45,341 bases of DNA from an uncultured Bacilli bacterium (GTDB lineage: Bacteria; Bacillota_I; Bacilli_A; RF39; UBA660): NCBI GenBank assembly GCA_947581715.1, contig CANPVK010000002.1, positions 1 to 45,341 on the forward strand. The letters are read 5' to 3'. The translations under genes and the position numbers were made by a program. How positions within the stretch are numbered: the first letter of the stretch is position 1; each line of letters starts with the position of its first letter. The notes beneath the pieces were generated by a model, which saw nothing but the letters and a program-made list of their open reading frames with translations, was not told where the DNA came from and searched no databases. Positions 1 through 14,560 of the stretch are shown in pieces.

Positions 1-85
1 TCGTCCTTGACTAAATTTGGTGAAAGACTAAATTTCACTTCTTTATCTTTAAACGCAATTTACTTTTTCATTTAACAAAATATAG

Positions 86-111
86 AAAGTACCGAAAAGT
101 ACTTTTTTTTT
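86..111 (+). terminator. Rho-independent terminator of an upstream out-of-window + strand gene
   Basis: Hairpin AAAGTAC-(6 nt)-GTACTTT followed by a T-run reaching 111. Confidence 0.55.
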
Positions 112-122
112 CCTGGAAGATA

Positions 123-131
123 TGGTATAAT
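123..131 (+). promoter_or_regulatory. Extended -10 promoter element upstream of typA
   Basis: TGgTATAAT about 30 nt upstream of the typA start. No clear -35. Confidence 0.45.
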
Positions 132-160
132 TTCCAGTGTTCGTTTAGGGAGTGAAAAGA

Positions 161-1969
161 ATGAAAAAGAGAAATGTGGCAATTATAGCTCATGTAGACC
201 ATGGGAAAACAACTTTAGTAGATCAAATTTTAAAATCTAGCGGAACTTTTCGTGAGAATGAAGATGTTTCTGATTTATCTATGGATTCTAATCAGTTAGA
301 AAAAGAAAGAGGAATTACGATTTTAGCGAAAACAACAGCGATTAATTATCGAGATTATCGTATTAATATTATGGATACACCAGGACATGCTGATTTTGGT
401 GGAGAAGTAGAGCGTATTATGAATATGGTAGATGGAGTTCTTTTAGTAGTGGATGCTTATGAGGGAACCATGCCACAAACTAGATTTGTGTTAAAAAAAG
501 CTTTAGAAGCAGGTGTAAAACCTTTAGTAGTCATTAATAAAGTGGATAAACCTAGTGCAAGAGTAGAACAAGTAGTAGATGAAGTTTTAGATTTATTTAT
601 TGAATTAGGTGCAGATGATGATCAATTAGATTTCAAAGTAGTTTATGCCTCTGCAATCAATGGAACGTGTAGTTTAAATCCCGATATTCGTACACAAACT
701 CCTGGATTCCAGGAATTATTGGATTTAATTATTTCCGAAATTCCAGCACCTGGTGGAAATCCCGATGGCAATCTTCAATTTCAACCAGCATTACTAGATT
801 ATAATGAATTTGTTGGAAGAATTGGAATTGGTAGAGTTCATAATGGAAGAATCAAAGTAGGACAAATGGTATCTTGTATTCGTTTGGATGGAAGTGTAAA
901 AAACTTTAGAATTCAAAAATTATTTGGTTTTCTAGGATTAAAAAGAATTGAAGTAGAAGAAGCAGAAGCTGGTGATATTGTTGCTATTAGTGGACTTGCT
1001 GATATTTCAGTTGGAGAAACAATCTGTAATCAAGGAGAACATTTCCCTTTACCAGTTTTACATATTGATGAACCAACTTTACAGATGACTTTTGGAACGA
1101 ATACTTCTCCTTTGGTTGGACAAGATGGAAAATTATTAACTGCACGACAAATTGAAGATCGCTTAAATCGTGAGCTACAAAGAGATGTTAGTTTAAGAGT
1201 AGAGCCATTAGATGGAGAAAGCTTTTTGGTTTCTGGTAGAGGAGAATTGCATTTGTCCATTTTAATTGAAAATATGCGTCGTGAAGGTTATGAACTACAG
1301 GTATCGAAACCTCAAGTTATTGAAAAAGAAATCGATGGAATGAAAATGGAACCGTTTGAAGATTTACAGATTGAAGTACCAGAAGAATCCATGGGAGCTG
1401 TCATTGAACAATTAGGTACTCGTGGTGGAATCATGGAAAACATGGTGCATTTTGAAAATCAAGTGCGACTTCATTATGTAATTCCTTCTCGTGGTTTAAT
1501 TGGTTTTTCTACAGAATTTATGACAATGACCAAAGGATATGGAATTATCAATCATACTTTTAAAGAATATCGTAAAATGGAAAATGTTAATATCGGAGAA
1601 AGAAAACTAGGTGTTTTAGTATCCAATGATCATGGGAAAAGTACTGCTTATTCTTTAGGTCAATTGGAAGATCGTGGAATTATGTTTATTGAGCCTGGAA
1701 CAGAGGTTTATGAAGGAATGATTATTGGTGAATGTAATCGAGAAAATGATTTAGCAGTGAATGTCGTAAAAGGAAAACAATTAACGAATATGCGAGCTGC
1801 TAGTGCGGATAAAACAGTAGTTTTGAAAAGACCTAGACCAATTACCTTAGAAGGTGCTCTTGATTACATTAATAGTGATGAATTAGTGGAAGTTACACCA
1901 CTTCATATTAGACTTCGTAAAAGAATTTTAGATACAGAAGCAAGAAAAAAATTTGATGCAAGAAGGTAA
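161..1969 (+). CDS. typA: Translational GTPase TypA/BipA
   Basis: G-domain motifs [21 protein letters not shown] and EF-G-like C-terminal domains, ~600 aa. ATG 161 preferred over GTG 152 because GGGAG lies 8 nt upstream. Confidence 0.95.
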
Positions 1970-1981
1970 ATAGAAAAGAAT

Positions 1982-2008
1982 AAAAAGTACTTTTAAATGT
2001 ACTTTTTT
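1982..2008 (+). terminator. Rho-independent terminator after typA
   Basis: AAAAGTAC-(8 nt)-GTACTTTT stem followed by a T-run. Confidence 0.7.
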
Positions 2009-2009
2009 T

Positions 2010-2018
2010 CTGCTATAA
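2010..2018 (+). promoter_or_regulatory. Extended -10 promoter element
   Basis: TGcTATAAT 29 nt upstream of the 2047 start. Confidence 0.45.
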
Positions 2019-2046
2019 TATACTAAGAAGATATGGAGATGAGAAC

Positions 2047-2652
2047 ATGAATGAAAAAAATAATTCGAATGTAACAGAACCCCAAAATTCCAAATTCACT
2101 ATTTTTGTTTTATCCCTCTTGTTTTTTACTCTGTTTGCCTATATTATGTTTCTTCCGAGTATTAGAAATTATTTTCAGCAGAGAAAATTTGCTTCTGTTA
2201 CTAACATAGAAAAACAACCCGAAAAAACCAATTCTCCTACTCCATCTAGTACTCCAATAAAAGAAGAATTATTCGAGACAGTTTGCACTTCTATTTCTAC
2301 AACGATTGATCATTATACCTTTGTACAAACTCAAAAATTTTATTCTAATAGTAAAAACCAGATTTTAAAAAGTTCTATCATTATGGATTATTCATTTACC
2401 ATGCAAGATGAAGTTTATGAATCTTTAAAGAATCAGTGTAGTGATGAAACTTATTTTGCTTATCCTGGATATACTCTTTCTTGCAATATTGATCATAATA
2501 CAATTATTATGATGCAAGAATTTAATTTGAGTACTTTTCAAACGGTTGTGGATGCAGAAAAAAATCTTCGAATCGAGGCAAATACAAGTTATCGTCAAGA
2601 ACTTAGTAGTGTGAAATCTAATTTAATCAATCAAGGATATACCTGTAATTAA
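2047..2652 (+). CDS. Hypothetical N-terminally membrane-anchored protein
   Basis: ORF with GGAGATGAG upstream. One hydrophobic helix (FTIFVLSLLFFTLFAYIMFL), then a soluble domain. No recognisable motif. Confidence 0.6.
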   Translation: MNEKNNSNVTEPQNSKFTIFVLSLLFFTLFAYIMFLPSIRNYFQQRKFASVTNIEKQPEKTNSPTPSSTPIKEELFETVCTSISTTIDHYTFVQTQKFYSNSKNQILKSSIIMDYSFTMQDEVYESLKNQCSDETYFAYPGYTLSCNIDHNTIIMMQEFNLSTFQTVVDAEKNLRIEANTSYRQELSSVKSNLINQGYTCN

Positions 2653-2736
2653 TTTTTCTGTTTTGGTATCATCCTTTTTCATTTACAGAAAATTGGATTC
2701 ATGTTATAATAGCTATCTGAATGGGGAAGGTGTCAA

Positions 2737-3210
2737 TTGAAAAAGAGAATCTATCAAATCAGTATTTGTGTGTTTATATTCGATCAATTTTTAAAGTATT
2801 TGATTACTAGAAATTTTGTTTATCAAAAAACGGTTGCTATCATTCCACATTTTTTTTATCTCCAATATATCAAAAATACAGGAGGAGCTTTTAGTATTTT
2901 TTCGAATTCCATTTGGTTTTTTGTTCTTATTGGAATGGTCTTTCTTATTGGAATGGTATCTTATATTGCTAAAAAGAAAGAAATTTCATTTTTAGAACAG
3001 TTTTCTTTTGGTCTTTTAATAGGAGGAGTTTTGGGTAATTTAATAGATCGAATTCTTTTTCATGGTGTGATAGATTATTTGGGGATTATTATATTTTCTT
3101 ATTATTTTCCTATTTTTAATTTTGCAGATATTTGTATTGTTTGTGGAACACTATTAATGGGAATTGTTTTAGTAGGTGAAAATCATGAAAATAGAAGTAG
3201 TAGAAAATAA
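2737..3210 (+). CDS. lspA: Lipoprotein signal peptidase (signal peptidase II)
   Basis: 157-aa multi-TM protein with NTGGAFS and FNFADICI regions typical of LspA catalytic Asp segments. TTG start after GGAAGGTG. Classic lspA-rluD pairing. Confidence 0.85.
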   Translation: MKKRIYQISICVFIFDQFLKYLITRNFVYQKTVAIIPHFFYLQYIKNTGGAFSIFSNSIWFFVLIGMVFLIGMVSYIAKKKEISFLEQFSFGLLIGGVLGNLIDRILFHGVIDYLGIIIFSYYFPIFNFADICIVCGTLLMGIVLVGENHENRSSRK

Positions 3211-4081
3211 TATTCGTTTGGATCAATATTTAACCCAAGAATTACAACTTAGTCGCAATCAAGTTCAGAAACTAATTAAAGAAAACAAAGTATTTGTGAA
3301 TCAAAAATTGGAAAATAATAATTATCTTGTAAAAATGGGTGATAAGATTCAAATTTTAGATGAATTAGATTTTTCTATTTCGGTAGAGGGAGAAGATATT
3401 CCTTTAGATATTGTTTATGAAGATCAGTATTTATTAATTATTAATAAAAAATCAGGAATGGTCGTTCATCCTGCTCCGGGAAATTATCATGGTACTCTTG
3501 TCAATGCTCTTGTTCATCAGTTTTCTTTTCAAGATGATTCTATTCGTCCTGGAATTGTACATCGAATTGATAAAGATACCAGTGGTTTAATGGTTGTTGC
3601 AAAGGATATGAAAACACAGGAACTGTTAAGTGAGATGATGAAACGAAAAGAGGTAGAGAGAGTTTATTATGCTTTGGTAGATGGTATTATTCCTCACGAA
3701 ACGGGAACTATTGACGCTCCAATTGGAAGAGATCCAGATCATCGAAAAAAGATGAAAGTAACCGATCAGAATAGTAAAAAAGCAATTACTCATTTTAAAG
3801 TTTTAAAACGTTTTATGAGTACTCATCAAACTTTAGTCGAATGTAAATTGGATACAGGACGTACTCACCAAATTCGTGTACATATGGCATATATTGGTTA
3901 TCCTATTTTTAATGATCCCACTTATGGCAAAAGTAAAAAAACGACTGATTTTGGACAATTTTTACATTCTAAAAAGATTTCTTTTATTCATCCTATTACG
4001 AAGCAAAAAATAGAAAGAGAGGTTTCTCTTCCCAAAGAATTTCAGGATTATTTAGCTAAAATAGATATACAAGAAAAATAA
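3185..4081 (+). CDS. rluD: RluA/RluD-family 23S rRNA pseudouridine synthase
   Basis: N-terminal S4-like region (RLDQYL), catalytic HRIDKDTSGL motif, TGRTHQIRVH motif. ATG 3185 after AGGTGA preferred over GTG 3176. Confidence 0.9.
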   Translation: MKIEVVENNIRLDQYLTQELQLSRNQVQKLIKENKVFVNQKLENNNYLVKMGDKIQILDELDFSISVEGEDIPLDIVYEDQYLLIINKKSGMVVHPAPGNYHGTLVNALVHQFSFQDDSIRPGIVHRIDKDTSGLMVVAKDMKTQELLSEMMKRKEVERVYYALVDGIIPHETGTIDAPIGRDPDHRKKMKVTDQNSKKAITHFKVLKRFMSTHQTLVECKLDTGRTHQIRVHMAYIGYPIFNDPTYGKSKKTTDFGQFLHSKKISFIHPITKQKIEREVSLPKEFQDYLAKIDIQEK

Positions 4082-4118
4082 ATTTGGATATAATAAAAAT
4101 AGAAAGAGAGGAAAAATA

Positions 4119-5258
4119 ATGAACGAAACAGCAAATAGGAAAGATTTAATCGTGATGAAACTTCTTCATTATTTTATCACAGAAAAAAATTATAGTCCTA
4201 TTATTTTACAAGGGGCAGAAGATGAAATTTGGTTAGAAAATTTAAGTGGGGATTACGCTATTATTCGAATCGTATCTAATTATATTCATAATGATGAACA
4301 ATTAAATTTTGATTTATTTAAAGCCAAAAGAATTGTATCTAAGATTAAAAGAAAAACATTATCTTTTCACATGAATGTGTTAAATATTTATACTGATTTG
4401 GGAGATAATGCACATTTAGAAAAAATGAATCAAATGGATTGTATGTTTTTATATGATGAACAAGATTTAAAAAAGTATCCTTTTATTCAAAAATATTTTC
4501 CTGATATTTCTAATAAACTTGTATTTCATGAAGATGGATTAAAATTATTTATTAAAATTACGAATGATATTAATCAGAAAAATAAAAGAGAAGCGGAAAA
4601 AGCTGAATCTGTTTTTCAAAAGAAGACACCTTGGGTTACTTATATTTTATTAATTCTGTTAGTATGTTGTTATGTAATTCCCATTTTCTTTGGAAATTAT
4701 GAAAAAATTTTAAATGATTTTTGTTTATATGGACCATATATTAAAAATTATCATGAATATTATCGATTATTTACGGGGGGATTTTTGCATGGTAATCTCA
4801 TTCATTTGTTACTAAACTGTTATGCTTTATATATTTTAGGAAGTCAATTAGAAAGTTTTATGGGAAAAGCAAAATATTTATGTATTTATATATTTTCGTT
4901 ATTCATGGGAAGTCTTTTATCTATCACCTTTAGCGATTATGCTAGTATTGGTGCGAGTGGAGCTATTTTCGGATTAATGGGTAGTTTATTATATTTTGGA
5001 TATCATTATCGTATTTATTTGGGAAATACTTTAAAAAGTCAAATTATTCCATTAATTATTTTAAATTTGTTATTCAGTTTTTTTCTGAGTGGAATTGATG
5101 TTTTTGCACATATTGGAGGATTAATTGGTGGCTTTATGATTACTATGGCACTAGGAGTTAAATTTAAAAGTACAATATCTGAACGAATAAATGGTTTTAT
5201 CGTTACAGGAATTTTTGCTTTTTTTATGATTTATATGGCACTTTTTGTTTCAAGATAA
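4119..5258 (+). CDS. Rhomboid-family intramembrane serine protease with N-terminal cytosolic domain (YqgP/GluP-like architecture)
   Basis: C-terminal multi-TM domain with HGNLIHLLLN, GASGAIFG (catalytic Ser) and HIGGLIGG (catalytic His). Confidence 0.85.
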   Translation: MNETANRKDLIVMKLLHYFITEKNYSPIILQGAEDEIWLENLSGDYAIIRIVSNYIHNDEQLNFDLFKAKRIVSKIKRKTLSFHMNVLNIYTDLGDNAHLEKMNQMDCMFLYDEQDLKKYPFIQKYFPDISNKLVFHEDGLKLFIKITNDINQKNKREAEKAESVFQKKTPWVTYILLILLVCCYVIPIFFGNYEKILNDFCLYGPYIKNYHEYYRLFTGGFLHGNLIHLLLNCYALYILGSQLESFMGKAKYLCIYIFSLFMGSLLSITFSDYASIGASGAIFGLMGSLLYFGYHYRIYLGNTLKSQIIPLIILNLLFSFFLSGIDVFAHIGGLIGGFMITMALGVKFKSTISERINGFIVTGIFAFFMIYMALFVSR

Positions 5259-5399
5259 AAGTGTCTTTTTATTTTTTAATTTTCTTCGTATTTTCATATT
5301 TTTCTGATATTTTGAATGGTAGTAAAAAGAATTTAAAATTCCTAGTTTCTTTCCTTTTGGAAGTATGTTATAATATTTTTAGAATAAAAGGGGATCAGT

Positions 5400-7052
5400 A
5401 TGAATCAGGATTTTAATCATTCCAATCGTTTTATTTTTACAGATAGCTTCTATGATCATTTAGATAGCTCTTTTTCTAATGCAGAAGAATTTGAAAAGAA
5501 AGAACTTGAAAATAAAAATTCAGAAAATTCTAACAAAGGGGAAATAAATTTTGGGTTTATTCCAAATCATGAGAATGTAAAACAAGAAAATAATCCTTCA
5601 ATAGGAATGGAGAATGAATTAAAACCTTTTTCCTTTCTTTCTGATTCCGATCAGGAAATCAGTTCTTCCAAAGAAGAAAAAAATTCAAATATTTTCCCTC
5701 CACTGAAAAAAGAACCAGAACAAAAAGATACAGATACTTTTACGATAGATTCTGGAATTAATGAAGAATTAGAGAATGAACTTCTTTTCCAAAAAGAATC
5801 AGATTCTTTGGTTTTTCCAACTTCTTTTTCTAATTCAGAAGAAAAACAACCAGAAAGAACAGTTTATCGTGCTACTAGAAATTCTAATTCAATTGTTCCT
5901 ACTTGGTTAGAACAAGATGAAAAAGAAAATTCTGTTTCACCAAAGTTACCAGAAAAAATCACTTTTCCCCAGGAAGAAGAATTGATTCCTCCCATTATTG
6001 ATATTGATGAAAAATTAAAAGAGGATTATGATTCCTTTATGGAACAAGAAAATCATATGTATCAGCAAGAAAATTTGGTGGTAGATTCTCATATTGTGAA
6101 TAATAATTTATTAGAAAGATTACGTGAAAATGAAAAAGAAACAAAAAAAATTAGTATTTTAGCTCGATATGGAGAAGATTTTTGTAGTAAAGATTATATT
6201 ACCAATCCGGCCATTGGAAGGGAAAAAGAAATTAAAGAATTAAGCTTGATTTTATTAACCCCTGAAAAATCAGCTGTTTTAGTTGGAAAACCCGGGATAG
6301 GAAAAACAAGTATAGTAGAAGGACTTGCTTATCAGATTCAAAGAAATAATGTTCCTGATTTATTAAAAGAATATCGTATTATTAGTATCAAAACAACTTC
6401 GTTAATAGGAACATTACCAAATGGAGAAACGAGATTACAGACTTTAATTGATGAACTAAAGAATTTAGATCATATTATATTATTTATGGATGAAATTCAT
6501 ATGTTGATTAGTGCTACGAATGAATATGGACTTGATTTTGCCAACATGTTTAAAGAAAGTTTGGGTAGAGGAAGTATTAAGATGATTGGTGCTACAACAA
6601 GTGATGAATATGAAAAATATATTTTAAGTGATAAGGCGTTTGTAAGGAGATTTCAGAAAGTAGATATATTAGAGCCAAATAGACAGCAAACTATTCAAAT
6701 TTTAATGGGTTCTTTACCAAAAATAGAAAAAAATACTAGTGCTAGATTAAAATATAATTCTTATATTCAAACAGAAATTATGACCTTCCTTGTAGATATC
6801 ACAACAGAATATAAAAGAGTTTATGGCATAGGTTCTAGATATCCAGATATTTGTTTGACTTTATTGGCTCAAGCATTTTCTCAAGCAATTTTTCATAATC
6901 GCAAAGAAGTAACGATTTTTGATGTTAGAAATGCTATTGAAAATTCTAAAAATATATATCCGGATGTTATTCAAAAAGAACTTATTCGTTTTGATGAGAA
7001 ATTTCAACAGATTATGGATGAAGAACAAAAAATAAAAAATTCTAGTGATTGA
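5400..7052 (+). CDS. Orphan ClpA/ClpB-D1-like AAA+ ATPase with ~240-aa acidic low-complexity N-terminus
   Basis: Clp D1 signatures: NPAIGREKEIKEL, Walker A GKPGIGKTS, Walker B ILFMDEIH, IGATTSDEY, FVRRFQKV. No Clp N-domain and no second AAA module. Confidence 0.8.
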   Translation: MNQDFNHSNRFIFTDSFYDHLDSSFSNAEEFEKKELENKNSENSNKGEINFGFIPNHENVKQENNPSIGMENELKPFSFLSDSDQEISSSKEEKNSNIFPPLKKEPEQKDTDTFTIDSGINEELENELLFQKESDSLVFPTSFSNSEEKQPERTVYRATRNSNSIVPTWLEQDEKENSVSPKLPEKITFPQEEELIPPIIDIDEKLKEDYDSFMEQENHMYQQENLVVDSHIVNNNLLERLRENEKETKKISILARYGEDFCSKDYITNPAIGREKEIKELSLILLTPEKSAVLVGKPGIGKTSIVEGLAYQIQRNNVPDLLKEYRIISIKTTSLIGTLPNGETRLQTLIDELKNLDHIILFMDEIHMLISATNEYGLDFANMFKESLGRGSIKMIGATTSDEYEKYILSDKAFVRRFQKVDILEPNRQQTIQILMGSLPKIEKNTSARLKYNSYIQTEIMTFLVDITTEYKRVYGIGSRYPDICLTLLAQAFSQAIFHNRKEVTIFDVRNAIENSKNIYPDVIQKELIRFDEKFQQIMDEEQKIKNSSD

Positions 7053-7068
7053 TACTAGAATTTTTTTT
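7037..7068 (+). terminator. Bidirectional intrinsic terminator shared by the convergent AAA+ and cotJC-like genes
   Basis: 10-bp stem AAATTCTAGT/ACTAGAATTT with a 7-nt loop containing the 7050 stop codon. A-run upstream and T8 downstream. Confidence 0.65.
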
Positions 7069-7459
7069 CATTATCTCTTGGTTGTGGTAAATTTTCTTTA
7101 TAGTATTCGTATAGCTCTTTAAAGCGATTAAAGTGTACTATTTCACGTTGTCTTAACCATAATAAAGGACCAATTACATCTTGATCATTTGTTAAATCTA
7201 GTAGATGCTCGTATACTGCTCTTGCTTTTTGTTCTGCTGCCATATCTTCACTTAAATCTGCAAGTGGATCTCCTGTTGTTGCAAAATAGGTTACCGTGAA
7301 GGGAACTCCATTTGAGTCTGTTGGGTATAAAGCAGAATCATGTTCTGCATAATGTGTATCTAATCCGGCTGCCTTTATCTCTTCAATGGTTGCTCCTTTC
7401 ATTAATTGATAAATCATGGTACATATAATTTCAATATGTGCCAATTCTTCTGAACACAC
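7055..7459 (-). pseudogene. cotJC: 3' fragment of a cotJC-like (Mn-catalase/ferritin-like spore coat) gene, truncated by prophage insertion
   Basis: Translation SEELAHIEIICTMIY...GDPLADLSEDMAAEQKAR...LRQREIVHFNRF matches the C-terminal ~2/3 of CotJC as recalled. The expected ~55-60 N-terminal residues are absent. The reading frame runs into the integrase stop codon 9 nt upstream. Confidence 0.8.
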
Positions 7460-7468
7460 ACGATAGTT

Positions 7469-8992
7469 TTATAATTTTATATCAATATTTAATTCAAATT
7501 CTTCTTCATGTCCTTTTCCTCTAACGGTTTTTATATAATATATTTTTTTAATAATTGTTTTTAATAAATTATTTCTTTCTTCTGGAGATAAATTAGTAGA
7601 GTAGGTATCTAACACATTTTTTAGTTTAGGTACTATATCTTTTATTTTATCAATTTTCTTTTTCTTAGTTTGTTGGGAGTATTTATCTTTTTCGATTTCT
7701 AAGTTTTTTATTTGCTGTTTCAACGTTTTACTTCTTTCTAAAAAAGTAGTACTATCATAAATCTCTTGTTCCAACAAATCATAAGCTTTATTTAATTGAT
7801 TATTTAGTTTTTGAATTTCTTTTTCGATTAATTCTACGTTATTGCTATCAAATTCCTGCTGTATTGTTTCTTTTTTGTAGGATACTAGCATTTGCTCATA
7901 TTCTTTTAAAATTCCTTGTAGGGTACTTAAAATTGCATTTTCTATCAAATATAGATGAGAGCCAACATTTTTGCAATGAGGTAGGGGACATATTAAACCG
8001 TCTATATGTCCTGATCTATAATTTCTTCTTTGCATAGTTCTATGACAAATTCCACATTCTACAAGCCCAGCAAGTGGATTTTGTAATGTTAAATCTTTTT
8101 TTGTAGATTTTCCTTCTTTTATTTTAGAATTTTCGTTTGCGGTTTTCCACTGTTCTTCATCGATAATGGCTTCATGTAATCCTTTAACCAGAGTGTATTC
8201 TTTTTGTTTTGGTCTAGATTTATAGATAATACCATTTTTCATGGTTTTAACAGTTTTTCTACAATTCCATTTAATCATTCCATAATAAACTGGATTATGG
8301 ATAATATCTCTTATACTGGCCGATACCCATACTTCTGATTTTCTGGGTTTAGAACCTATTTTATTTAAGTGATTCGCAATATTAGAAGCGCCAATTCCTT
8401 GAGAGGCAAGTTGAAATATTATTTTAACAATCTTTTCTTCTTCTTCATTAACAACTAATTTAAATCCTTTTTGCCCTTGTAACTTTTCTTTGGAATATCC
8501 GTAAGGACAGGTTGAACCTACAAATTTACCCTCATTTACAGAAGATAATCTACCACGATTTAATCTTTTATTAATAATTTTATATTCTCTTCTTGACATA
8601 AAGAGCCCAAATTCAAAAAAGTCTTCATCTAGCTCATTATTTGGATCATAAACTTTTGAAGGTGTAACTATCTTTGTATTACCAAATTTAAAGGTTTTAG
8701 AAATTTTGCCTTGATCTTCGGTATCTCCACGAGCTAATCTATCAACATCTACTACATAAACTTCTTCGATGTTATTATTTTCAATTTCTTTTAATAATTC
8801 TTGTATTTTTGGTCTTGCTTCAATAGTTTCTCCAGATACAACTTCTTCATAATAATAATCTAAAATAACAGAGTTTTGTTCTGCTAATTTATTTATAATT
8901 TCTCTGTGTCTTTTTAGTGTATCTTGTCCCGTTACATTTTCTAATTCTAAATCAGCTCTAGATTTTCTTAAATAAGCTACTTTTTTTCTCAT
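7469..8992 (-). CDS. Large serine recombinase (phage integrase)
   Basis: N-terminal resolvase-type catalytic region VAYLRKSRAD...VYVVDVDRLARG, a recombinase domain, a Cys-rich zinc-ribbon region (CGICH...CPLPHC) and a C-terminal coiled coil, ~507 aa. ATG 8992 after GAGAGGAAG preferred over 9010. Confidence 0.9.
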   Translation of the reverse strand: MRKKVAYLRKSRADLELENVTGQDTLKRHREIINKLAEQNSVILDYYYEEVVSGETIEARPKIQELLKEIENNNIEEVYVVDVDRLARGDTEDQGKISKTFKFGNTKIVTPSKVYDPNNELDEDFFEFGLFMSRREYKIINKRLNRGRLSSVNEGKFVGSTCPYGYSKEKLQGQKGFKLVVNEEEEKIVKIIFQLASQGIGASNIANHLNKIGSKPRKSEVWVSASIRDIIHNPVYYGMIKWNCRKTVKTMKNGIIYKSRPKQKEYTLVKGLHEAIIDEEQWKTANENSKIKEGKSTKKDLTLQNPLAGLVECGICHRTMQRRNYRSGHIDGLICPLPHCKNVGSHLYLIENAILSTLQGILKEYEQMLVSYKKETIQQEFDSNNVELIEKEIQKLNNQLNKAYDLLEQEIYDSTTFLERSKTLKQQIKNLEIEKDKYSQQTKKKKIDKIKDIVPKLKNVLDTYSTNLSPEERNNLLKTIIKKIYYIKTVRGKGHEEEFELNIDIKL

Positions 8993-9019
8993 TATAGCAC
9001 TTCCTCTCATAAAATTTTA

Positions 9020-9048
9020 TTGATAAGTAGGATTTTTCATGCTATAAT
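9020..9048 (+). promoter_or_regulatory. Near-consensus sigma-A promoter pointing away from int
   Basis: TTGATA-17 nt-TATAAT with a TGn extended -10 (TGcTATAAT). Confidence 0.6.
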
Positions 9049-9053
9049 TAAAT

Positions 9054-9138
9054 AGCAGAAAAAAGATTCTTATCGTGGTAGATAGATTTTTATTTCTGTG
9101 CATTTTGACTTCGTATTAACGGTACGGAGTCTTTTTTT
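9054..9138 (+). ncRNA. Candidate ~85-nt small RNA between int and the lipoprotein gene
   Basis: The promoter at 9020-9048 is followed ~60 nt later by the hairpin GACTTCGTA-(7 nt)-TACGGAGTC plus T7 (9107-9138). No SD-preceded ORF lies in between. Confidence 0.4.
9067..9083 (+). repeat. Inverted-repeat copy 1 (TTCTTATCGTGGTAGAT)
   Basis: Perfect 17-nt reverse complement of 13115-13131. Similarity continues (TTTTTATTT) after a 3-nt AGA insertion. Confidence 0.9.
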
Positions 9139-9574
9139 ATTTTAATTTATTAAATATTTCAATCACACTATCATATTTTGGAAATTCATCATCAATCATT
9201 AAAGCATATCCATTTTTAACAATTGCATCGAAATCTCCAAATCCTTCCATTGTGACTTTTTGATTTTTTTCTGCATTTTTATAAGCATCAGTTGAAGAAT
9301 CAAATTTATAAATTTCTAATTTATAATCACCATTTACTAATTTAATACCACTTTCAGCATTAATGTAAGTTGCAACCATATCTGTTTTTGTATAAGTTAT
9401 TCCTAAATTTTTAACTTCTTTTTCAAAATCATCTATTGAAGTTAAACTATTAGTATCTTCACTGATATTTGTGTCATTATCTTTATTATCGATCGTAGTT
9501 TTGTTTTCACTTCCACAACCAGTTAATGATAAGCAAATTAATCCTGCAAATAAAATTGTCATAATTTTTTTCAT
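9137..9574 (-). CDS. Prophage-encoded lipoprotein (possible superinfection-exclusion moron)
   Basis: Signal peptide with lipobox LSLTGC|GS. AGGAGGTG SD. Located between int and the immunity genes. Confidence 0.8.
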   Translation of the reverse strand: MKKIMTILFAGLICLSLTGCGSENKTTIDNKDNDTNISEDTNSLTSIDDFEKEVKNLGITYTKTDMVATYINAESGIKLVNGDYKLEIYKFDSSTDAYKNAEKNQKVTMEGFGDFDAIVKNGYALMIDDEFPKYDSVIEIFNKLK

Positions 9575-9946: not shown

Positions 9947-10357
9947 TTATACTAAATTTTCTGTTATTATCGCAATTTTATCTTCTTCTGCTAAATGAAG
10001 AATAAGTTTCATTAATTCATCTAGTAAGTCATCCGATATTCTTGCAAATACATAATAATCTAATTTGTCTTTATTAAAATAAAATAATTTATCTGCTTTT
10101 ATGTATGATGGTTTCTTGAATTTTTTTATACCATCTTTTTCAAATTCAATTATTTCCATGTTTTCTTCATGACTCAATTTTTGCTTTCTTTGTTCTTCAC
10201 TTTTAAAACTTGAAATTACGGTTGTTACATGAGTATATTCTAATCCTTTTATGCAATCTGGGTTATCATCAATAACTACAAATGAATGACGTCCGATTTC
10301 TTTTCCATCATCCCCAATATATTTATTAACTACAATAATATCTCCTAATTTACACAT
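9947..10357 (-). CDS. Hypothetical protein with a PemK/MazF-like sequence pattern
   Basis: The pattern GDIIVV...G.E..RHSFVVID...TTVISS...SYIKADKLFYFNKDKL...ISDDLLDELMKLI parallels the MazF/PemK layout (GDI.wv, RP.lVlS, v..piTs, s.v..dqi.tidk.rl). By-eye only. Confidence 0.45.
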   Translation of the reverse strand: MCKLGDIIVVNKYIGDDGKEIGRHSFVVIDDNPDCIKGLEYTHVTTVISSFKSEEQRKQKLSHEENMEIIEFEKDGIKKFKKPSYIKADKLFYFNKDKLDYYVFARISDDLLDELMKLILHLAEEDKIAIITENLV

Positions 10358-10406: not shown

Positions 10407-10709
10407 TTAATTTTCCATCAAGAATTTAACATATTTATCAGCTTCATCCTCTACATTTTCTATTGAAAAAGAGAATAGTTCTTGTTGTCTGTCTAAATGA
10501 TGTAATTCCAAATGTGCTAACTCATGTATTATTGTTTTCTTTTTCTTTTCTTTAGATATATTCCAATTTACGATAATTATATTAATATCTCTATATTTAT
10601 GGATAAAGCCATAAATTTTTTTTGGTAATTTTTTATATATTATTTTTATATTATTTTCAATAAAATAATCTTTTTCAGATATTTCATTATTTAATAAATC
10701 AATTAGCAC
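10407..10709 (-). CDS. ImmA/IrrE-family zinc metallopeptidase (short form), anti-repressor protease
   Basis: HEXXH motif (IIHELAHLELHH). Lies immediately downstream of the XRE repressor in the same operon. GTG start 7 nt after AAGGAG. Confidence 0.75.
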   Translation of the reverse strand: MLIDLLNNEISEKDYFIENNIKIIYKKLPKKIYGFIHKYRDINIIIVNWNISKEKKKKTIIHELAHLELHHLDRQQELFSFSIENVEDEADKYVKFLMEN

Positions 10710-10776: not shown

Positions 10777-11136
10777 TTATTTATCTAATTCCTTATCTAT
10801 ATCTTTATGAATAACATCTATTACAGATATAATAGATTTTTTTTCTTCATCGCTTAAATTTTTTGCTTTTGAAAAAAGAATTTGATCTAATTCGGTCATA
10901 TTACTGCTTTCAATTTTGCCATTTAACGGAACATCATATCCCATTAACCAAGTTTCGCTTACATCTAAAACTTCTGCTAGAATAGTTAAATTATCTTGTT
11001 TTGCTTTATAATTACCAGATAAATAATTAGATATTAATGATTTATCAATTTTAGTTTTTTCAACCAGTTCAGCTTGTTTCATGTTTCTTAAGTTTAATGC
11101 TTTTTGTAATCTGTTAGCAAATGTATCTACTAGCAT
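10777..11136 (-). CDS. XRE-family HTH repressor (CI/ImmR-like)
   Basis: HTH_3 pattern LRNMKQAELVEKTKIDKSLISNYLSG...LAEVLDVSETWLMG. No S24 peptidase domain. ATG 11136 6 nt after AAAGGAGG preferred over 11154. Confidence 0.85.
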   Translation of the reverse strand: MLVDTFANRLQKALNLRNMKQAELVEKTKIDKSLISNYLSGNYKAKQDNLTILAEVLDVSETWLMGYDVPLNGKIESSNMTELDQILFSKAKNLSDEEKKSIISVIDVIHKDIDKELDK

Positions 11137-11157
11137 ACAAATCCTCCTTTCCATTTA

Positions 11158-11186
11158 ATTATAAAATAAAGTTGAGAAAAAATCAA
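11158..11186 (-). promoter_or_regulatory. Leftward (repressor) promoter
   Basis: - strand TTGATT-17 nt-TATAAT. An operator-like site overlaps the -35 and spacer. Confidence 0.6.
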
Positions 11187-11271
11187 TGACAAGTTTAGAA
11201 AAAATTAAAAAATGTGTTGACATAATAGTTGAGAAATGCTAAACTTAAATTGTAGTTGAGATAAACTCAAC
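11171..11271. promoter_or_regulatory. Operator cluster of the genetic switch
   Basis: 17-bp sites: GTTGAGaaaaaATCAAT (11171-87), GTTGAGaaatgCTAAAC (11228-44) and the perfect palindrome GTTGAGataaaCTCAAC (11255-71). Confidence 0.55.
11217..11245 (+). promoter_or_regulatory. Rightward early (cro-side) promoter
   Basis: TTGACA-17 nt-TAAACT with TGc extended -10. Overlapped by the 11228-44 operator. Confidence 0.65.
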
Positions 11272-11287: not shown

Positions 11288-11557
11288 TTGAAAACATATA
11301 ATTATAATAAACTTAAAGGCAGAATTAGAGAAATATTCGGTACTCAAGAAAAATATGCAGAAAGTTTAGGAATATCAGTAACTTCTATAAATTATAAACT
11401 AAATTGTAAAGTTCCGTTCACTCAAGATGAAATATCAAAATCTATCGAAATATTAAATATTTTGCCTAATGAAATTCAAGACATTTTTTTTAATTCTAAA
11501 GTTGAGAATAACTCAACAAATGTATTAGATAAAAATCAATTAAAAGATTCAACTTAA
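11288..11557 (+). CDS. Cro-like/DUF739-like small HTH regulator
   Basis: First gene of the rightward operon. Pattern KLKGRIREIFGTQEKYAESLGISVTSINYKLN. TTG start 7 nt after AAAGGAG. Confidence 0.6.
   Translation: MKTYNYNKLKGRIREIFGTQEKYAESLGISVTSINYKLNCKVPFTQDEISKSIEILNILPNEIQDIFFNSKVENNSTNVLDKNQLKDST
11501..11517. promoter_or_regulatory. Remote operator-like palindrome inside the 3' end of the cro-like gene
   Basis: GTTGAGaataaCTCAAC has the same perfect half-sites as 11255-71, 246 bp away. Confidence 0.45.
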
Positions 11558-12379: not shown

Positions 12380-12617
12380 ATTTAATGTTTACGATGAACC
12401 TTCATACGATCTATATGAAGGACCATATCCTACACATATTGAAATAATTTCAGATATGGATAGAAAGTATGTCAAAAATGGTTCAATAAAAGTTTTAGTA
12501 CCAGGAAATGGAGCAATTAAAGTAAAAATAGATATTAATTCTCAATCTTATAAAAAATCAGATATAAAAAAAGGACTTGCACAAGTATTTGAACAAATTC
12601 TTAAAAATTATGATTAA
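12360..12617 (+). CDS. Hypothetical early protein
   Basis: ATG 12360 after AGGAGAACAGA, overlapping the previous stop. No motif recognised. Confidence 0.55.
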   Translation: MKEENTEFNVYDEPSYDLYEGPYPTHIEIISDMDRKYVKNGSIKVLVPGNGAIKVKIDINSQSYKKSDIKKGLAQVFEQILKNYD

Positions 12618-13065
12618 TTCTAATGCTGAAATTACCACGTGTAGTAAAAATTAAAAGTTTTTGGATATTTAATTTTTTTGAGGTATAGTTTGATTCTTTT
12701 GTTTTAAATCTGCAAAAACTAGCTTCCAGTGGTGCGAGTAAGATTGGAAAACCGTCGGTATATGAGTCTTCTTGAATCTTATTTCCATTAGGTACATCGA
12801 TAATGATGGAATCGCTATATTCTTTATATTTGCAGATTTTTATAGTATCACTTTCAGTTTTAATTTGAATATCAGTAATTGTTATTGGCAAGTGGGAATT
12901 GTTTTCAATAACTAAATTAATATAATATTTCGAATCAAATAATTTTAATTCATTAATAGTTATTTTAACTTTTCTGCGTCGTGTTTTAAGCAAATATGCA
13001 CTATTCAATGCTGAAAGCACAAAAGAAAGCGTTGCAATACCATTGTGATATAAAAAATCGTACAT
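12601..13065 (-). CDS. Membrane-anchored hypothetical protein (moron antisense to the early operon)
   Basis: N-terminal TM helix IATLSFVLSALNSAYLL, then a beta-rich domain. AAAGGAGG SD. Own extended -10 promoter. Confidence 0.6.
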   Translation of the reverse strand: MYDFLYHNGIATLSFVLSALNSAYLLKTRRRKVKITINELKLFDSKYYINLVIENNSHLPITITDIQIKTESDTIKICKYKEYSDSIIIDVPNGNKIQEDSYTDGFPILLAPLEASFCRFKTKESNYTSKKLNIQKLLIFTTRGNFSIRINHNF

Positions 13066-13088
13066 AATAATTACCTCCTTTCAAAAGC

Positions 13089-13097
13089 ATTATACCA
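13089..13097 (-). promoter_or_regulatory. Extended -10 promoter of the 12601-13065 moron
   Basis: - strand TGgTATAAT in the same cassette as 12059-12067. Confidence 0.5.
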
Positions 13098-13114
13098 TAG
13101 GAGGAAAATAAAAA

Positions 13115-13131
13115 ATCTACCACGATAAGAA
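13115..13131 (+). repeat. Inverted-repeat copy 2 (ATCTACCACGATAAGAA)
   Basis: Perfect reverse complement of 9067-9083. Confidence 0.9.
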
Positions 13132-13174
13132 AAAAATAAAATCTTGTCGAATATTATTAATCAGGAGGGATAAC

Positions 13175-13390
13175 ATGGAAAAACACTATCAATTCGGAAA
13201 AACAAAAGTAACTGTTACTTCAAGTGTTACTCCAGAAGAAAGAAAAGAAAATCTTAAAAAAATTTATGATGTAGTTAATGAGATTGCAGACAAGAAAAGA
13301 GAAGAGGGAATCAATGTAGATAATTGGTTCTACACTCAAGAGGAAATAGAAGAATTAAAAAGAAAAAATAGTCCAAAATTAATTTATTAA
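13175..13390 (+). CDS. Hypothetical early protein (71 aa)
   Basis: ATG after CAGGAGGG. No motif recognised. Confidence 0.6.
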   Translation: MEKHYQFGKTKVTVTSSVTPEERKENLKKIYDVVNEIADKKREEGINVDNWFYTQEEIEELKRKNSPKLIY

Positions 13391-13587: not shown

Positions 13588-13702
13588 TGTCAAAAAACAA
13601 AGAAAAAAAGAGAACTCAACCCATAAATAAAAGTTCCCTTTGTCAAAATGACAGCTTAATTTTACAACAAATTCTTATTTTTGTCAAATTGAGGTGTTAG
13701 TA

Positions 13703-14560
13703 GTGAAAAACAGCTTTTTGATTTATCACGAATATAGAGACATATTAGAAGACCTAACTAATGAAGAATTAGGAAAATTATTTAGAGCAATATTTGATTA
13801 TGAAATAGATAATAAAATTCCTCATTTTGTGGGGCTTATGAAAATGGCTTTTATGGTGATAAAAGGGAATCTTGATAGAGATAGAAATAAATATGATAAG
13901 AGATGTGAATCTTCTTCTGAAAATGGCAAAAAAGGTGGAGCACCGAAAGGAAATCAAAATGCTAAAAAACAACCTAAAAACAACCTAAAACAACCTAATC
14001 AACCTAAACAAGCCGATAATGATAATGAAACTGATACTGAAAATGGTAATGATAATGATAATGCTTCTGCTTCTGATAAAGGGAAAAGTGCCGACTTACT
14101 CGCAGAAGATGGAATTGAAAAAAGTGCCGACTTATTCAGTTCTGATGAGACAAGTGAAACAAATGCCGATTTATTCACTTATATTCAAGAAGCACTAGGG
14201 AGAACATTAAACAGTATTGAATATGAAGTTATCAATGAATGGCAAGACAATGATTTGACTCGTTATGCCGTTAAAGAGTCAATTTTGAATGGAGCTCGTG
14301 GAATACGATACATTCAAACTGTCTTAGAAAGTTGGAAGGCAAAAGGTTTTAAAACGGTGCAAGATGTACAAGCCTATCAAATCAAGAGGAAACAAAACAT
14401 TGAAAAACAAAATTTAAAAGAAAAAGAACTACCTGATTGGTTTAACAAAGACCTAAAAAATGAAGAAATGACAGAAGAGGATAAGAAAGAATTGGATGAT
14501 CTTTTAGAAAGCATTACAGAAACAATAGAAAAGGGGAAAAAACGTGATGGAAGATGTTAG
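13703..14560 (+). CDS. Replisome organizer / DnaD-domain replication initiation protein
   Basis: The C-terminal region FTYIQEALGRTLNSIEYEVINEWQDND...ARGIRYIQTVLESWKAKG resembles the DnaD/DnaB_2 domain. The N-terminal YHEYRDILEDLTNEELGKLFRAIFDY resembles the DUF6291-type helper domain. The basic/acidic linker holds iterons. Confidence 0.7.
   Translation: MKNSFLIYHEYRDILEDLTNEELGKLFRAIFDYEIDNKIPHFVGLMKMAFMVIKGNLDRDRNKYDKRCESSSENGKKGGAPKGNQNAKKQPKNNLKQPNQPKQADNDNETDTENGNDNDNASASDKGKSADLLAEDGIEKSADLFSSDETSETNADLFTYIQEALGRTLNSIEYEVINEWQDNDLTRYAVKESILNGARGIRYIQTVLESWKAKGFKTVQDVQAYQIKRKQNIEKQNLKEKELPDWFNKDLKNEEMTEEDKKELDDLLESITETIEKGKKRDGRC
13970..14007 (+). repeat. Four tandem CAACCTAA direct repeats (iteron set A)
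   Basis: CAACCTAA at 13970, 13981, 13991 and 14000, with 9-11 bp phasing, inside the organizer gene. Confidence 0.6.
14084..14176 (+). repeat. Three dispersed direct repeats AAA(A)GTGCCGA(C/T)TTA(C/T)TC (iteron set B)
   Basis: Copies at 14084-14101 and 14120-14137, and a degenerate copy at 14161-14176. Confidence 0.55.

Follow-up and report, generated by a model that had tools for sequence, protein, structure and literature searches.

Antisense-RNA immunity of temperate phages is textbook knowledge resting on a few enterobacterial examples, namely P1/P7 c4, P4 CI, P22 sar and lambda OOP. The CI RNA of P4 is an immunity factor that pairs with short repeated targets in the nascent early transcript; it is excised from the leader of the very transcript under its control, which it causes to terminate prematurely. 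Here we analyzed a 45,341-nucleotide (nt) stretch of DNA from an uncultured Bacilli bacterium (contig CANPVK010000002.1, positions 1 to 45,341; hereafter the window), with a G+C content of 27%. At 9020–9138, beside the large serine integrase gene (int) of a prophage, it carries a predicted small RNA (sRNA) gene whose 17-nt seed is complementary to RNA from a target site upstream of a 71-amino-acid (aa) gene, here named fam2. As with P4 CI, a small RNA would serve as an immunity factor by pairing with an early transcript, but no terminator follows the target site here.

The c4 RNA of P1 and P7 is a structured RNA of about 77 nt in immI immunity that carries short complementary sequences in its loops and pairs in trans upstream of the regulated gene in the early/immunity transcript, and in related phages matched changes of RNA and target give distinct immunity specificities (PMC12197685). 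The seed/target classes described below look the same. However, c4 and its target share one operon transcript, out of which c4 is processed, and the gene it controls, by way of icd, is the antirepressor ant. In contrast, the present sRNA lies 4 kb away beside int in a Gram-positive gut host, and its own promoter and terminator, together with the leftward genes between sRNA and target, indicate that it is not processed from the target-bearing transcript. P22 sar and lambda OOP, each with a promoter and a terminator of its own, are small phage RNAs whose base pairing represses a lysis-lysogeny gene (PMC12197685). Both are cis-antisense RNAs, encoded on the opposite strand of the target and fully complementary to it, in contrast to the trans-encoded sRNA found here (9055–9138, with the target at 13115–13131), in which the seed covers 17–20 nt in the clade of the window and about 40 nt in a sister clade. 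The prophage small RNA 24B_1 of the Stx phage Phi24B has also been proposed to hold lysogeny by repressing the distant d_ant (PMC12197685); it differs in being microRNA-sized and in having no comparable comparative support.

With regard to the site of integration, the C. difficile skin element with CD1231/CD1234 (PMC5025042) and SPbeta with SprA/SprB (PMC4191935, PMC5499854) are large serine recombinase elements lying in a sporulation gene, and the skin excision factor is a 72-aa acidic orphan protein (PMC5025042). The prophage studied here, inserted in cotJC, resembles these sporulation-gene-intervening elements, and fam2 has the same size as the tightly regulated excision factor of about 72 aa and likewise travels with the integrase. 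In contrast, control in skin and SPbeta is transcriptional (sigma-E/SpoIIID and sigma-K). To our knowledge, no RNA regulator has been described for this type of control over a recombination directionality factor (RDF).

The sRNA gene in the window is made up of the following features.

9020–9048, + strand: sRNA promoter with −35 TTGATA (9020–9025), a 17-nt spacer and the TG-extended −10 TGcTATAAT (9040–9048), 11/12 matches
9055–9138, + strand: predicted sRNA of about 80–84 nt, the start inferred 6–7 nt past the −10 and the 3′ end in the T-run
9055–9099, + strand: stem-loop 1, with closing stem GCAGAAA (9055–9061) / UUUCUGU (9093–9099) and an apical part presenting the seed
9075–9080, + strand: apical loop GUGGUA of stem-loop 1
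9067–9083, + strand: seed UUCUUAUCGUGGUAGAU (DNA 17-mer TTCTTATCGTGGTAGAT), complementary to + strand RNA at 13115–13131
9107–9138, + strand: intrinsic terminator, a hairpin of 11 pairs (9107–9131) followed by T7

An initial annotation, made from the letters of this stretch, had described a near-consensus TTGATA-17-TATAAT promoter with a TG extension, a hairpin with T7 that works in the + orientation only, and an interval without any open reading frame (ORF) preceded by a Shine-Dalgarno sequence, and all of these were recovered. The terminator contains the U-G pairs T9111-G9127, T9116-G9122 and T9117-G9121, which become A-C on the − strand, where no T-run follows the hairpin. No + strand ORF of at least 30 aa was detected between the promoter and the terminator; the sole reading frame in the sRNA is a 14-codon GTG frame without a Shine-Dalgarno sequence, which is shortened to three codons in the related locus L001. 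The predicted RNA (9055–9138) folds with −25.8 kcal/mol (z = −5.2 against shuffles). A scan of the whole window at Rfam 15 gathering scores gave no match, and an Rfam E-value scan of 8900–9300 gave chance-level matches only (E ≥ 0.4). Promoter-like hexamers in the window numbered 40 against 47.5 expected; such hexamers are not rare in DNA of 27% G+C, so the weight of the evidence lies on conservation and not on the consensus match. With its own promoter, an intrinsic terminator, no conserved ORF and conservation as a unit, the interval 9020–9138 is predicted to be a free-standing gene for a non-coding RNA of about 84 nt with a strong sigma-A-type promoter and a terminator of its own.

Species-representative genomes were searched with the integrase as query, which yielded 13 loci (numbered here with the prefix L), mostly from uncultured Bacilli of rabbit, human and other guts. 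In L001–L004, L006–L009 and L011 the sRNA unit stands right after the int start codon and consists, in order, of TTGATAAG...ATGCTATAAT, AGCAGAAAAAAGATTTCTTATCGTGGTAGAT, TTTATTTCTGT and the terminator hairpin, with the promoter block TTGATAAG...ATGCTATAAT being nearly invariant across 10 related loci. Past the sRNA terminator, the DNA is unrelated cargo between loci. Conservation of the promoter, hairpin and 17-mer in related prophages had been set beforehand as a check, and the result is a unit kept beside int with unrelated flanks. More than 15 related prophages of uncultured gut Bacilli have the unit in this position next to a large serine integrase, and such an integrase lies immediately left of the sRNA in every sRNA-bearing locus. 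In the RNAalifold prediction, 8 of the 10 terminator-stem pairs stay paired through changes on both sides, and the closing stem of stem-loop 1 carries compensatory changes in L004 (GCAAAGAGAA / UUCUUUUUGU), L214 (GCAAAAAAACA / UGUUUUUUGC) and L219 (GUACAGAAAA / UUUUCUGUAC). A covariance model built from 11 copies of the sRNA recovered the same position in L001–L004, L006–L009, L011, L058 (a viral contig) and L214–L218 (contigs found later via the 71-aa protein) at 58–103 bits, with L219/L220 scoring 31.6 bits. The pattern ATGCTATAATN5AGCARA retrieved one true locus from viral contigs, L058; on metagenomes it was too loose, with chance hits among the matches listed. In cultured phages neither a DNA match nor a fam2 match was found, only integrases of about 40% identity. 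On this comparative evidence, the sRNA belongs to a real, conserved and previously undescribed phage sRNA family. A different unit was seen in L012 (3574–3714, − strand), where an unrelated promoter, an RNA of about 75 nt and a terminator occupy the same position beside an integrase of 41% identity; pairing of this RNA with the start region of its own fam2 homologue, 3.3 kb away, was weak (−19.5 kcal/mol), and the unit was set aside.

The distal side of the proposed pairing contains three features.

13106–13131, + strand: target site in the rightward early transcript, with core AUCUACCACGAUAAGAA (13115–13131) and an A/U-rich extension (13106–13114)
13144–13153, + strand: conserved motif TTGTCGAATA, located past the target and before the fam2 Shine-Dalgarno sequence, unique in the window
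13175–13390, + strand: fam2, a 71-aa gene with its Shine-Dalgarno sequence at 13164–13170

The exact reverse complement of the seed 17-mer is present at 13115–13131, and shuffles gave 0.11 matches even with three mismatches allowed. With RNAduplex, 13097–13136 ranked first among all partners for the sRNA body across the window (−31.9 kcal/mol, z = −6.7), and the A/U-rich extra pairing past a bulge was reproduced. The initial annotation had claimed perfect complementarity of the 17-mer, further pairing after a bulge and a target 44–69 nt upstream of the ATG at 13175, and its description proved accurate. It can be refined in that the target is, from the gene arrangement, the leader of a conserved 71–73 aa gene heading the replication module. 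In every one of the related loci, the sRNA body pairs best, or nearly best, with a + strand site located 1.4–4 kb rightward; the equivalent site lies about 40–70 nt upstream of the fam2 start in L001–L004, L007–L009, L058 and L214, with L011 having a 106-aa ORF between the target site and fam2. Seeds and targets differ between loci in a matched manner, as listed below.

Window: seed UUCUUAUCGUGGUAGAU, target AUCUACCACGAUAAGAA
L001: seed GUUCUAGUCGUGGUU, target AACCACGGCUAGAAC
L002: seed ..GUGGUGG, target CCACCAC..
L004: seed UUCUUGUCGUGG, target CCACGACAAGAA
L008: seed UUUCCUAUCGUGGUA, target UACCACGAUAGGAAA
L009: seed UCGUAGUGGGUAUUG, target CAAUAUCCACUACGA
L214: seed UUCGUGUCGUAGUG, target CACUACGAUACGAA
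L219: seed UUGCUGUGGUAGGU, target ACCUACCACAGCAA

Co-variation was counted in a gap-free joined seed/target alignment of 12 loci, in which the 17 intermolecular pairs are 87.7% paired. Changes on both sides were observed in 8 of the 17 pairs (16 cells), a count reached by 0 of 500 shuffles, and sliding the partners by 1–3 columns left only 1–3 both-side-changed pairs. The mean duplex energy was −28.0 kcal/mol for cognate against −21.7 kcal/mol for non-cognate combinations, with 0 of 20,000 permutations as good. The single-sided differences inspected in the duplex cores (L001, L003, L004, L009 and L214) are all G:U when both sRNA and mRNA are read from the + strand, and would be A-C on the opposite strands. 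The seed 17-mer is without dyad symmetry, and it was rejected as a CI operator, the probable operators being unrelated AGTTGAGAAA repeats at 11171–11264; together with the G:U-only single-sided changes, this argues against a shared protein-binding site. As in trans-acting base-pairing RNAs, seed-target complementarity is kept through compensatory changes across relatives, and this co-variation with the distal site supports the trans-acting RNA first suggested. There is thus strong comparative evidence that the seed would pair in trans with + strand early RNA at 13115–13131. The transcript bearing the target could start at an early promoter at 11217–11245, about 1.9 kb upstream, or at a weak one at 13043–13071, and is probably the early transcript from 11217–11245.

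Several further sites near the seed and target were examined. The sequence ATCTACCACGAT (8548–8559), the reverse complement of the seed core inside int, codes for the conserved NRGRL motif, and L006, L007 and L011 have it at an identical offset. It was rejected as a third site as it does not track the seed in L001, L004, L008, L009, L011 and L214; it pairs with −5 to −12 kcal/mol to the target against −21 to −27 kcal/mol for the seed, and its recurrence is read as a coincidence from coding constraint. No second pairing was found at the fam2 ribosome binding site in the window clade. Short ATG ORFs were found at the target in L001, L002, L004 and L009, but their frames differ and none is present in the window, L003, L007, L008, L011 or L214, so a conserved upstream ORF was rejected as a general feature. 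Pairing of the target's 3′ half with TTGTCG into an mRNA hairpin is predicted only in the window, L008 and L011, and was set aside as inconsistent. The motif TTGTCGAATA is present in eight loci (window, L003, L007, L008, L009, L011, L058 and L214), about 10–20 nt upstream of the fam2 Shine-Dalgarno sequence and, in L007, L009 and L214, within a hairpin with a GAAUAA loop; its comparison with known sigma-factor consensus sequences, promoters or sites gave nothing convincing. In L219, a distant type, the seed UUGCUGUGGUAGGU finds a perfect 14-mer match (8620–8640) before a SpoVG-like gene (8667–8912), with fam2 elsewhere at 7001–7225, and SpoVG-like genes recur in the early regions of L216, L217, L223 and L224.

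A second clade with a different sRNA was obtained from a search of viral contigs with the fam2 alignment, which revealed 13 more distant loci with fam2 33–46% identical, 11 of them having a serine integrase of 35–46% identity in the left arm. Identities were 30–41% for fam2 in L201–L211 and L223, and 42–46% for int in L201–L207, L210 and L211. These last nine loci carry an extended −10 TTTTATGCTATAAT after the int start, followed by a different RNA of about 113 nt with a covarying terminator. The RNA is complementary over about 40 nt to the translation start region of fam2 (−42 to −50 kcal/mol), covering the Shine-Dalgarno sequence GAGGUG, the AUG and about 10 codons; this clade thus points directly to the purpose of the RNA, which would be to occlude fam2 translation. 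Between sub-clades the change is compensatory, with GAUAGC or GGUAAC in the sRNA facing GCUAUC or GUUACC in the mRNA, and it is synonymous on the mRNA side (AGC UAU to AGU UAC). The same arrangement was observed in L223 and L224, with integrases of 720 and 681 aa, respectively, where the target lies on a short upstream ORF overlapping the fam2 start; L224 also has a further seed/target pair, UUUAGGUUGGUAGCCUU with AAGGCUACCAACCUAAA. As the seed cores are alike (GUGGUAG and GUGAUAG), the system looks homologous across the clades, with the target shifted relative to the start codon. A second strong two-part site for the 113-nt RNA was noticed in L204 (17317–17376), inside an HNH endonuclease gene 7–8 kb downstream of fam2. 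The GCUAUYACAC motif is common to this site and the one at fam2, and the second site is also found in L201, L202, L205, L210 and L211 (−37 to −47 kcal/mol), while L203 and L206 are without it.

At the sRNA promoter itself, an 18-bp palindrome TGCTATAATTAAATAGCA (9040–9057) covers the −10 and the start site, and a third ATAGCA half-site (8994–8999) overlaps the int start codon region (GTGCTATAATG on the − strand). The palindrome is kept in both clades and is not found in L219 or L012. It may be, with the half-site, an operator or an int-leader hairpin.

The best reading of these results, which we regard as likely, is that of a trans-acting antisense immunity RNA repressing fam2 and possibly downstream early genes. 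We infer that the sRNA is made in lysogens, from its strong promoter, and represses fam2 there. First contact would likely be made between the GUGGUA loop and the single-stranded UACCAC (13118–13123), flanked by A-runs, after which the duplex would grow to 17–26 bp and fam2 expression would fall. The target, in an A-rich leader, is separated from the AUG by 44 nt, which makes it unlikely that the duplex directly occludes the ribosome binding site in the window clade. Repression might instead arise from the loss of a ribosome standby, enhancer or stabilising leader region, from decay starting at the duplex, or from duplex cleavage separating the mRNA from a Shine-Dalgarno-like GAGG element, conserved about 11–20 nt upstream of the target site, that might stabilise it. 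The sRNA would then add a second layer of immunity, based on RNA, to the XRE/ImmA repressor switch and act as a threshold filter on early transcription, following the logic of P1/P7 c4, P4 CI and P22 sar. In the lysogen it would silence early transcripts that arise by leakage or read-through, and it would likewise silence those of incoming phages with the same seed; induction would proceed when the early transcripts exceed the sRNA in number. The seed/target classes would be explained by pressure from superinfecting relatives.

Some observations weigh against this reading. In the window clade both the Shine-Dalgarno sequence and the start codon lie outside the target, which therefore does not reveal the sign or the mechanism of regulation, and no canonical + strand promoter was found near the target site. 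In L219/L220 the best site precedes the SpoVG-like gene and not fam2, which means that fam2 is not a universal target. The palindrome over the −10 and start site suggests that the sRNA promoter may not be constitutive. Moreover, all related loci are metagenome assemblies, and they are not phylogenetically independent, so the shuffle statistics are inflated.

An alternative that we judge improbable, though deserving attention, is that the sRNA acts mainly in cis on int, through transcriptional interference or a full duplex with the int leader, and that the distal match is secondary. The sRNA runs opposite to any int mRNA starting upstream of 9010, and its gene abuts the int start codon in every locus. 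No leftward promoter with at least 9/12 matches was found in 9010–9140 and the hairpin is no terminator on the − strand, so leftward lipoprotein or lysogeny-side transcripts probably read across the sRNA gene into int; in such read-through RNA the inverted repeat ATTATAGCA (8991–8999) / TGCTATAAT (9040–9048) could sequester the int start codon. Nevertheless, a site 1.4–4 kb away that co-varies with the seed is left unexplained, as is the sister-clade complementarity of about 40 nt to the fam2 ribosome binding site, and a role on int is compatible with the data as an addition and not as the sole function. An additional cis role is thus possible. Far less credible is that a single phage protein binds both 17-mers as DNA, each being an operator or an accessory site for recombination, with the sRNA being incidental. 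Inverted copies separated by 4 kb are a conceivable form of a shared operator, the distal 17-mer lies just upstream of a leftward TG-extended −10 (13090–13098), and a palindrome overlaps the sRNA promoter. Yet the core differences inspected are transitions that give G:U on + strand RNAs and never A-C, the 17-mer has neither dyad symmetry nor the sequence of the CI operators, the sister-clade complementarity enters coding sequence and changes at synonymous sites, and the promoter, stem-loop 1 and terminator around the seed are kept with RNA-type covariation.

Equally hard to credit is a type I toxin-antitoxin pair, in which the sRNA would be the antitoxin RNA and the 71-aa Fam2 protein the toxin. 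Such systems are often carried by Firmicutes prophages, and repression of a small protein gene by a small RNA would suit one. However, Fam2 is predicted to be a charged, soluble-looking protein (beta-hairpin plus helices) and not a short hydrophobic peptide, the sRNA lies 4 kb from fam2 and is thus neither an overlapping nor an adjacent antisense RNA, and fam2 sits in an early operon ahead of replication genes in all loci. Chance, that is, an AT-rich intergenic region resembling a promoter and terminator with a recurring 17-mer, has almost nothing to recommend it: promoter-like hexamer pairs are as common as in shuffled sequence, but the exact 17-mer is far above what shuffling predicts and the unit is conserved and co-varying in more than 15 loci, so the tests of terminator covariation, cognate duplexes and seed-target co-variation effectively refute this explanation.

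The presumed target gene is closely linked to the integrase. Nine mapped loci share the gene order int, sRNA, variable leftward genes, repressor, cro-like gene, variable genes, target, fam2 and replication gene, with fam2 (71–73 aa in these loci) being the first conserved gene of the replication module; an ImmA-type protease precedes the repressor in six of the nine, and one replication-gene family occurs in eight. No match to fam2 was found in Pfam, PHROG, a PDB sequence profile or Foldseek, and none of its about 105 homologue clusters is named. The AlphaFold2 model (pLDDT 87.6) comprises a beta-hairpin, a long helix and a short helix. Wherever the left arm is captured, fam2 co-occurs with a large serine recombinase, at int identities down to 35% and lengths of 507–720 aa, and in most loci followed via fam2 the recombinase is inserted in cotJC next to cotJB. 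The link holds with XRE plus ImmA or S24-type repressors and across different replication modules, and the retention of fam2 under either repressor type argues against a repressor-specific antirepressor. In the shortened element L010 (6723–11503), only about 2.9 kb separates the int start from the cotJC C-terminal fragment, and this stretch encodes a LytTR response regulator, fam2, a 141-aa ORF and an XRE gene, with no sRNA, replication genes or structural genes; as far as the locus extends, the other side showed no N-terminal fragment of cotJC. In L221/L222, fam2 lies in an island with a type I restriction-modification system.

Fam2 thus sits on the same element as the integrase and is co-inherited with it, as would be the case for an RDF. 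Neither fold nor synteny is common to RDFs (PMC12286644), so a Foldseek search without matches is uninformative either way. That fam2 encodes the directionality factor of the large serine integrase is a reasonable possibility, which we would put somewhat below even. More tentatively still, the int-linked sRNA could be an RNA lock on excision, with fam2 as the RDF of the cotJC-targeting integrase kept untranslated in vegetative lysogens. Early transcription would then swamp the sRNA and release fam2, the co-diversifying seed/target pairs would be orthogonal specificity classes, an RNA equivalent of heteroimmunity, and int, sRNA and RDF would move jointly as the three parts of one recombination module.

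The sRNA gene lies in the int-proximal arm of a prophage inserted in cotJC, and the surrounding genes in the window are given below.

1–7052: host genes (typA/bipA-like and others)
7055–7459, − strand: CotJC/Mn-catalase-type gene, C-terminal two-thirds (134-aa fragment), directly after the int stop codon
7469–8992, − strand, ORF open to 9010: large serine integrase (int) with Pfam Resolvase, Recombinase and Zn_ribbon_recom
9137–9574, leftward: lipoprotein gene
Right of the lipoprotein gene, leftward: two small-protein genes
9947–10357, part of this leftward cargo: phrog_21589 protein with a faint MazF-like match
10407–10709, leftward: ImmA/IrrE-type metalloprotease
10777–11154, leftward: XRE repressor
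11171–11264: AGTTGAGA(A/T)A in three copies, flanked by the divergent XRE repressor and cro-like gene promoters
11288–11557, rightward: DUF739 cro-like gene, then small ORFs
12601–13065, leftward: 154-aa membrane protein, phrog_17486
13090–13098, − strand: TG-extended −10 TGgTATAAT driving the 154-aa membrane protein gene
13694–14560, rightward: DnaD/DnaB_2-type replication protein

The likely int start is the ATG at 8992, and int is transcribed away from the sRNA promoter. The repeats at 11171–11264 are probably CI-type operators of the repressor. The promoter/leader block at 13090–13098 also precedes unrelated leftward cargo in L001, L007, L008, L009 and L214, which places a module boundary just left of the sRNA target. 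The cotJC gene interrupted by the prophage belongs to the Mn-catalase family and lies next to cotJB. In other loci a cotJC N-terminal fragment of about 70 aa stands at the int side (L214 2099–2783, L217 2257–2894, L223 200–867 and L224 119–472), and the presence of either the N- or the C-terminal fragment beside int indicates that the insertion varies either in its orientation or in its point within the gene. Cargo between sRNA and repressor in L215 (2527–4901) includes Abi_2 and ThsB-TIR defence genes, where the window instead has the lipoprotein gene and the phrog_21589 protein. A tRNA/tmRNA search found none.

Overall, the principle of phage antisense-RNA immunity is known, and the new elements are a free-standing sRNA gene that adjoins a serine integrase in Gram-positive gut prophages and lies 4 kb away from its target, as well as the apparent control of an orphan protein family tied to the integrase. 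If true, this would be a comparatively well-supported case of antisense-RNA immunity in such prophages, and the target gene of one variant is indexed in 330 blocks of public assemblies. The natural compensatory seed/target series amounts to a ready-made mutational analysis, and the finding singles out an unannotated 71-aa protein family as the presumed regulated gene. Should fam2 be the excision factor, this would be the first RNA-level control of serine-integrase directionality and a source of orthogonal sRNA/target and integrase/RDF parts.

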